This document shows, piece after piece, positions 6,108 through 6,765 of a stretch of DNA of 64,000 bases. The notes below the pieces were generated by a model, which saw only the letters and a program-made list of their open reading frames with translations, made no database searches and had not been told where the DNA came from. Position 1 is the stretch's first letter; each line of letters starts with the position of its first letter. Source of the stretch: Escherichia coli (GTDB lineage Bacteria; Pseudomonadota; Gammaproteobacteria; Enterobacterales; Enterobacteriaceae); NCBI RefSeq assembly GCF_024700885.2, contig NZ_CP117016.1; one strand, 5' to 3'. Position numbers and translations under genes: made by a program.

Positions 6108-6719
6108 TATTTGTCCTTAAATCATAAATAATTATAATATAAGCCAACTGAAATATTGACGCAGAGCTTCTTCAATTTTTACAGCGACTTTTAAGCAGCC
6201 AATGAACAGATTTTCAGCTCCTGAAAAAACAGGTTCCTTGATATAATATTCTTTGGCGTGCCGAACATGTTGATATTTTAATATGACTGATGCAATTTAA
6301 ATTTTCTAACATTAAAAGTTAGAAATACTTAATTAATGGACGGGGATAATAATTACTGAAATTTTTCATCTCAGTTATGAAGAATGAGTTCAAAAAAACA
6401 GCAAATGCAAAAATTCAGTGAATAAATCAAAGTCAAAAACAATCACATGGCAATGACTATCTTGTGATATTAATTTCGCAACGATATAATATTAAAACAC
6501 TATAATTAATATAAAATCAAGACCCAATAATATTTTTCACTTTAGTCATTATTTACCTAAAAATGCTTCCAGAAAAATAATTTATGAATAAAAGTAAATT
6601 TTCTTTCAATATGTAAATTTCCACAAATAAAAGCGTCATACCGTATAAAATTATGACTATTCGATCACAAGCGGATCATTGTTAGTACAATAAGATTAAA
6701 AAAATTCAACATTGCCAGA

Positions 6720-6752
6720 AAATAAAGGCCCGATAGCTTACGCCAGCGGGCC
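6720..6752 (-). terminator. rho-independent terminator downstream of sixA
   Basis: Minus-strand GC stem GGCCCG…CGGGCC (6727-6752) followed by a U-tract (plus-strand A-run 6721-6726) immediately 3' of the sixA stop. Confidence 0.5.
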
Positions 6753-6765
6753 TTGTGCATGCGTA

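Follow-up and report, generated by a model that had tools for sequence, protein, structure and literature searches.

Does the long, AT-rich DNA in front of the yfc fimbrial genes of Escherichia coli hide a phase switch, a small gene or an RNA element, or is it the silenced control region of an ordinary chaperone-usher operon? The window, by which we mean the whole stretch of 64,000 nucleotides of E. coli DNA analysed here (contig NZ_CP117016.1), carries the yfcV-sixA spacer at positions 6108-6765 exactly (658 bp), as shown by the ORF list and, in agreement with it, by the RefSeq annotation of E. coli strain 1190, which is 100% identical to the window and from which the gene layout was taken. 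Since the gene coordinates abut this interval, it corresponds to the spacer that begins where sixA ends and leads into the first yfc gene (Table 1). On the minus strand, the yfcV homologue is followed by the genes for the usher, the chaperone, three subunits and the StfH/YfcO adhesin. In strain 1190, a transposase gene of the IS3-family element IS1397 (locus 1-188) is found directly past the yfcO-like adhesin gene, outside the start of the window. yfcV is in wide use as a marker of uropathogenic E. coli.

The preliminary description of this spacer had called it long and strongly AT-rich, with many A/T tracts, and both statements were confirmed by direct measurement. G+C content of the spacer is 28.7%, compared to 48.0% for the window, with a local minimum of 23% in 300-bp windows, and only 0.1% of all 658-bp segments of the window are equally low. 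A/T runs of at least 4 nt number 22, about 1.5-fold more than in composition-matched shuffles (14.1 ± 3.2), and runs of at least 5 nt number 10 (5.3 ± 2.1 in shuffles); helical phasing of these runs was absent at 10-11.5 bp. Sigma-70-like sites, counted on both strands at a PWM score of at least 8, amount to 23 in the spacer (12 on the plus and 11 on the minus strand), or 35 per kb versus 5 per kb in the window, which makes it the densest bin of the window. This high density is due to base composition, since composition-matched shuffles gave nearly as many promoter-like sites (6 observed, compared to 4.4 ± 2.0). With a G+C content far under average over several hundred bp and promoter-like sites dense on both strands, the spacer has two of the properties of promoter islands.

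Table 1. Coordinates of the yfcV-sixA spacer features and flanking genes in the window
Feature	Position	Strand	Basis or remark
yfc usher, intact, 883 codons	2818-5469	-	ORF list and RefSeq annotation
yfcV homologue, fimbrial subunit, 188 codons	5541-6107	-	ORF list and RefSeq annotation
yfcV start codon	6105-6107	-	within TTTAAGGACAAATAATG
Ribosome-binding segment TTTAAGGACAAATAATG, near-invariant	6105-6130	-	no differences among the six alleles, E. whittamii included
Shine-Dalgarno AAGGA	6114-6118	-	within TTTAAGGACAAATAATG
Proximal promoter-like site TCAATA-17-TATAAT	6131-6159	-	PWM; -10 ends 23 nt before ATG
Conserved block TGTTCA(T/A)TGG(C/T)T (TGTTCATTGGCT), candidate regulator site	6197-6208	-	cross-allele alignments
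Conserved block CAC(G/A)CCA(A/G)(A/C)GAATA (CACGCCAAAGAATA), candidate regulator site	6247-6260	-	cross-allele alignments
Two AT-rich conserved blocks, ATTAATTAA..TCTA and TAAATTG	6293-6337	-	cross-allele alignments
Least variable central segment around the distal site	6429-6601	-	6/173 columns vary vs 47/489 elsewhere
Opposite-strand promoter-like site TTGTGA-17-TATAAT, towards sixA (antisense)	6462-6490	+	overlaps distal promoter block
Distal promoter-like site TTGGGT-17-TATAGT	6499-6527 (-35 6522-6527, -10 6499-6504)	-	PWM and K-12 homology
Conserved block TTGnnnCTTGAwT	6515-6527	-	cross-allele alignments
Only two GATC sites of the spacer, 11 bp apart	6663-6677	.	559-570 nt upstream of ATG
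Terminator U-rich tail, UAUUUUCU	6717-6724	-	directly after stem-loop
sixA intrinsic terminator stem-loop	6725-6754	-	fold -21.5 kcal/mol, z = -2.7
sixA	6766-7251	-	ORF list and RefSeq annotation

We propose, with a probability of roughly 0.8, that the spacer is the regulatory region of the yfc chaperone-usher operon, consisting of the sixA terminator and an H-NS-silenced, promoter-dense AT-rich tract. The closest known object is the yfcV/sixA promoter island of K-12, and the version in the window is a strongly diverged allele of it. Panyukov & Ozoline (2013) listed the K-12 spacer, as "2453647_489 yfcV(-)/sixA(-)", among 78 promoter islands, and it was flagged there as H-NS-bound according to the ChIP data of Kahramanoglou and of Oshima (PMC3661553). 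Shimada et al. (2014) reported an RpoD-holoenzyme SELEX peak in the K-12 spacer and assigned the sequence TTGAAA-17-TATAGT to yfcV, with the mark 'HNS' for H-NS binding sites beside this promoter (PMC3946193), and an RpoS-holoenzyme SELEX peak was found in the same spacer (PMC5493296).

The two islands are alike in their flanking genes, length (680 bp in K-12 and 658 bp in the window), G+C content (32% and 29%), ribosome-binding region and the hairpin at the sixA end, and in both the -10 hexamer TATAGT, with 17-bp spacing, occupies the homologous position. They differ in that the spacers are about 51% identical over aligned positions, so diverged that blastn finds no alignment, and in the -35 hexamer, which is stronger in K-12 (TTGAAA) than in the window (TTGGGT). 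The operons behind them differ as well: an internal stop makes yfcU of K-12 a pseudogene, whereas the usher gene of the window is intact, and the YfcV proteins are 66% identical. Based on the equal position, length, composition and promoter-site density and on the shared promoter block, we infer that binding of H-NS and RNA polymerase would carry over from K-12 to the window allele.

The spacer has two matches to the H-NS nucleation consensus TCGATAAATT with at most 2 mismatches. In the window as a whole they number 83, compared to 78 ± 8 expected, so the motif is not enriched. H-NS binding mainly follows AT content, and therefore this count neither helps nor hurts the H-NS reading; the phasing of the A-tracts was likewise uninformative. 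Published expression data also bear on the operon. Yfc has been described as a core-associated fimbria by Wurpel et al. (PMC3559732), and Korea 2010, as cited in that paper, is the source for the statements that the yfc genes are cryptic but functional and that many cryptic chaperone-usher fimbriae of commensal E. coli are repressed by H-NS. In CFT073, whose spacer is a different allele of 566 bp, overproduction of TosR, an AT-binding protein of the PapB family, raised yfcV expression by log2 5.2 (PMC5956150), and overproduction of BolA also raised yfcV expression in K-12 (PMC4337573).

The sixA end of the spacer contains an intrinsic terminator, namely a G+C-rich hairpin and a U-run right behind the stop codon. 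In four other allele families, G+C-rich hairpins of other sequence are located at the same place, with z values from -3.1 to -7.5. A simple terminator scanner gave no call for the sixA hairpin, perhaps because of unpaired bases in its stem. Among strains of the window allele family, the T-run behind the hairpin was present as T4, T5 or T7.

In the remaining DNA, two of the promoter-like sites directed towards yfcV are the most notable. The distal one ranks first by PWM in the K-12 spacer (score 14.9) and second in the window spacer (11.1), in the same alignment column. The K-12 sequence far outscores all other sites of its spacer, and the window version has a weak -35 compared to K-12. A transcript from the distal site is predicted to start near 6492 and to carry a leader of about 385 nt. 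In the cross-allele alignment, the alleles of CFT073 and EC42405 do not conserve the -10 of this site. The proximal site lies next to the ribosome-binding segment, and base 6135 within it is the single variable position in the last 52 nt before yfcV in the window allele family: the window lineage has a perfect -10 (TATAAT), and 5 of 6 other family members examined have TCTAAT, a single-base difference that, judged from the sequence, could change expression. An antisense promoter-like site, for which an alignment read by eye gave a K-12 counterpart at the same place (TTGGCA-18-TATAAT), overlaps the distal block, and sites of such kind are typical of promoter islands. The parts of the Cappable-seq and SMRT-Cappable-seq supplements available to us had no entry for the spacer interval. 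Both yfcV promoters are therefore named here as candidates, as their assignment comes from consensus matches and a low-resolution SELEX peak.

These elements suggest the following course of events. The terminator at the sixA end would stop sixA transcription and shield the yfc genes from read-through. The remaining approximately 600 bp of AT-rich DNA would most likely be coated by H-NS, probably together with partner proteins (for example StpA or Hha), and under ordinary conditions this coat would silence one or more yfc promoters. Transcription, when it occurs, may begin at the distal site or at the proximal one, and expression of yfc would need counter-silencing, by AT-binding regulators or an altered state of the nucleoid, rather than a DNA rearrangement. 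Since the spacer appears to be silenced and is not a switch, Yfc expression in this lineage should be sought through counter-silencing conditions or regulators and not by ON/OFF inversion assays. Features of this kind are already known and the spacer is an ordinary one: the yfc operon of this strain probably stands behind a standard spacer of the H-NS-silenced type and not behind a phase switch, which is of little import beyond annotation.

We also surveyed the spacer in complete E. coli genomes. Of 5426 genomes, 635 had a spacer of the window type, always chromosomal and always in a single copy, and the K-12-type spacer was complete in 3072. The spacer was also considered as a repeated or mobile element, and this was rejected because each genome has a single chromosomal copy and no copies were found on plasmids. 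There are at least five allele families in E. coli (window, K-12, O157 Sakai, CFT073/CEA601S and EC42405), in addition to that of E. whittamii. All six alleles are 545-680 bp long with 26-32% G+C, and they are mutually about 50-60% identical over aligned positions; elsewhere at the locus, identity of sixA is about 93-100%. Because the six alleles agree in size and G+C content despite an identity of about 50%, length and AT-richness have been kept and most of the sequence has not. Within the window-type family, the spacers are 94-100% identical, and the variation is unevenly distributed: a central segment around the distal site varies less than the remainder does (Fisher p = 0.009), with 3.5% of its 173 columns variable, compared to 1.9% in the last 52 bp and 11.9% in the stretch between them.

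The control region of yfcV thus exists in several very different versions with few short blocks in common. We regard the allele survey as a modest by-product of this analysis, and the conserved blocks as a modest lead for promoter dissection. In the E. whittamii spacer (8715-9384 of its locus), the proximal approximately 200 bp are nearly identical to those of O157 Sakai and the distal part differs, a sign that recombination within the spacer has made it a mosaic. Individual strains have further changes: XJW9B277 has an IS1 insertion within the spacer, and in UTME-9 yfcV and part of the usher gene were deleted by IS1. An exact copy of the E. coli yfcV start region was also found in a 2.2-kb contig of a Collinsella sp. 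MAG, which is probably a binning contaminant.

Among the other explanations for the spacer, the one that survives best is that the distal promoter produces a leader of about 385 nt with a cis-acting role in yfc control, exerted by RNA structure, sRNA pairing or Rho-dependent attenuation. The window and K-12 have the conserved distal promoter block in common, this block falls within the least variable segment, several short cross-allele conserved blocks are located downstream of it, and a hypothetical leader of 403 nt folds slightly better than its shuffles (z = -2.4). However, the spacer had no Rfam match at E <=1, a permissive threshold, and so gave no sign of a known RNA family, and the local hairpins of the window that we inspected have no K-12 counterpart. 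That the distal -10 is not conserved in two of the alleles, as described above, also speaks against this reading; the proximal -10-like site could serve in its place, and the conserved blocks can equally be explained as DNA sites for proteins. We therefore consider regulation by a leader improbable. The same low standing applies to an extended form of this idea, in which CACGCCAAAGAATA and TGTTCATTGGCT within the leader would act after initiation, by Rho/H-NS-dependent attenuation or sRNA pairing, and the allele families of the spacer, ancient mosaics numbering five or more, would set lineage-specific levels of Yfc; this form is speculative and we hold it doubtful.

A small regulatory protein gene hidden in the spacer, which the preliminary description had suggested, is very unlikely. 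Six ORFs of 23-32 codons are present on the yfcV strand, and most of them are preserved among the family members, which share 94-100% identity, but none is intact in any of the four other allele families, all six being broken there. The spacer ORFs had no Pfam or NCBIfam match, the longest of them has no preceding Shine-Dalgarno sequence by inspection, and nothing is annotated in the spacer in the curated K-12 record or in the RefSeq records examined. The ORFs are also confined to the T-rich strand, as composition predicts.

An epigenetic switch of the Pap type, in which Dam methylation of two GATC sites would compete with Lrp, is just as hard to support. The yfc spacer resembles the pap region in being an AT-rich control region of a chaperone-usher operon, with H-NS sensitivity as a probable shared property, and in that a PapB-family protein, TosR, affects yfcV in CFT073; moreover, both GATC sites are invariant within the window allele family. 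In Pap, the spacing of the GATC sites is about 100 bp. In the yfc spacer they are separated by 11 bp and lie more than half a kilobase from the ATG (Table 1), their positions are not conserved across alleles, with CFT073 and EC42405 having none, and their number is close to that expected from composition (2 versus 1.7). No papI or papB homologue is adjacent according to the annotation or the ORF list, so that, unlike the pap region, the yfc spacer has neither divergent papI/papB nor a conserved spaced GATC pair.

Least probable of all is that the spacer is a fimS-like invertible element, which would turn yfc ON and OFF by site-specific recombination. The spacer is similar to fimS in being an AT-rich region that precedes the gene for the major subunit in a core chaperone-usher operon of E. 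coli, the promoter-island table lists both, and its 658 bp would be long enough to hold such an element. At fimS, the 9-bp inverted repeats are perfect, the recombinase genes fimB and fimE lie alongside, and genomes carry the element in either orientation, whereas none of this applies to the yfc spacer. Imperfect inverted repeats do exist in the window, such as 6451-6468 with 6664-6681 (78% complementarity), but the K-12 allele does not conserve them, and the best perfect inverted repeat around 100-500 bp is 9 nt, compared to a shuffle mean of 9.5, with 84% of shuffles matching or exceeding it. The genes adjoining the spacer include no recombinase gene: sixA, fadJ and fadI follow one another at one end, and at the opposite end come the yfc structural genes.

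Genome comparison gave the same answer. The 635 genomes with a window-type spacer yielded 635 collinear matches, 633 of them covering at least 80% of the spacer, and none was split or on the opposite strand. For the K-12-type spacer, 3529 records gave 3534 places, with essentially no inversion among them; of the records with an extra place, one was inspected and proved to have an IS1 insertion. As a positive control, fimS was searched with the same procedure, using an artificially inverted query for the inverted state, and 4460 genomes had it in the reference orientation and 249 had it inverted, which indicates that a real switch shows up in about 5% of assemblies with this procedure. Slipped-strand tracts were rejected too: in the window family, length polymorphism is restricted to one A5/A6 run and to the T-run that follows the sixA terminator, and both fall outside the hexamer spacing of either candidate promoter.

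The yfc spacer accordingly shows none of the defining features of fimS-type and pap-type switches that were tested. The preliminary description had found no clear inverted repeats bounding a switch, and we agree, as the repeats are at chance level. Its suggestion of a possible phase-variation element has to be given up, given chance-level repeats, no inverted spacer among the 633 genomes, and no Pap-like GATC pair. Its interpretation thus stood in part: an H-NS-type fimbrial promoter region is indirectly backed by the K-12 tables, whereas the regulatory ORF and the phase-variation element are not retained. Our preferred reading remains that of a terminator followed by an H-NS-silenced promoter region.

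A second AT-rich stretch is present in the window at 13200-15000, between fadL and mlaA, with 30-35% G+C. It contains a hypothetical gene of 351 codons (ORF 13452-14507, plus strand) and a gene fragment. CFT073 does not have this stretch, fadL being followed directly by mlaA, and the yfdF/mlaA spacer at the corresponding position of K-12 is also listed among the promoter islands (PMC3661553).
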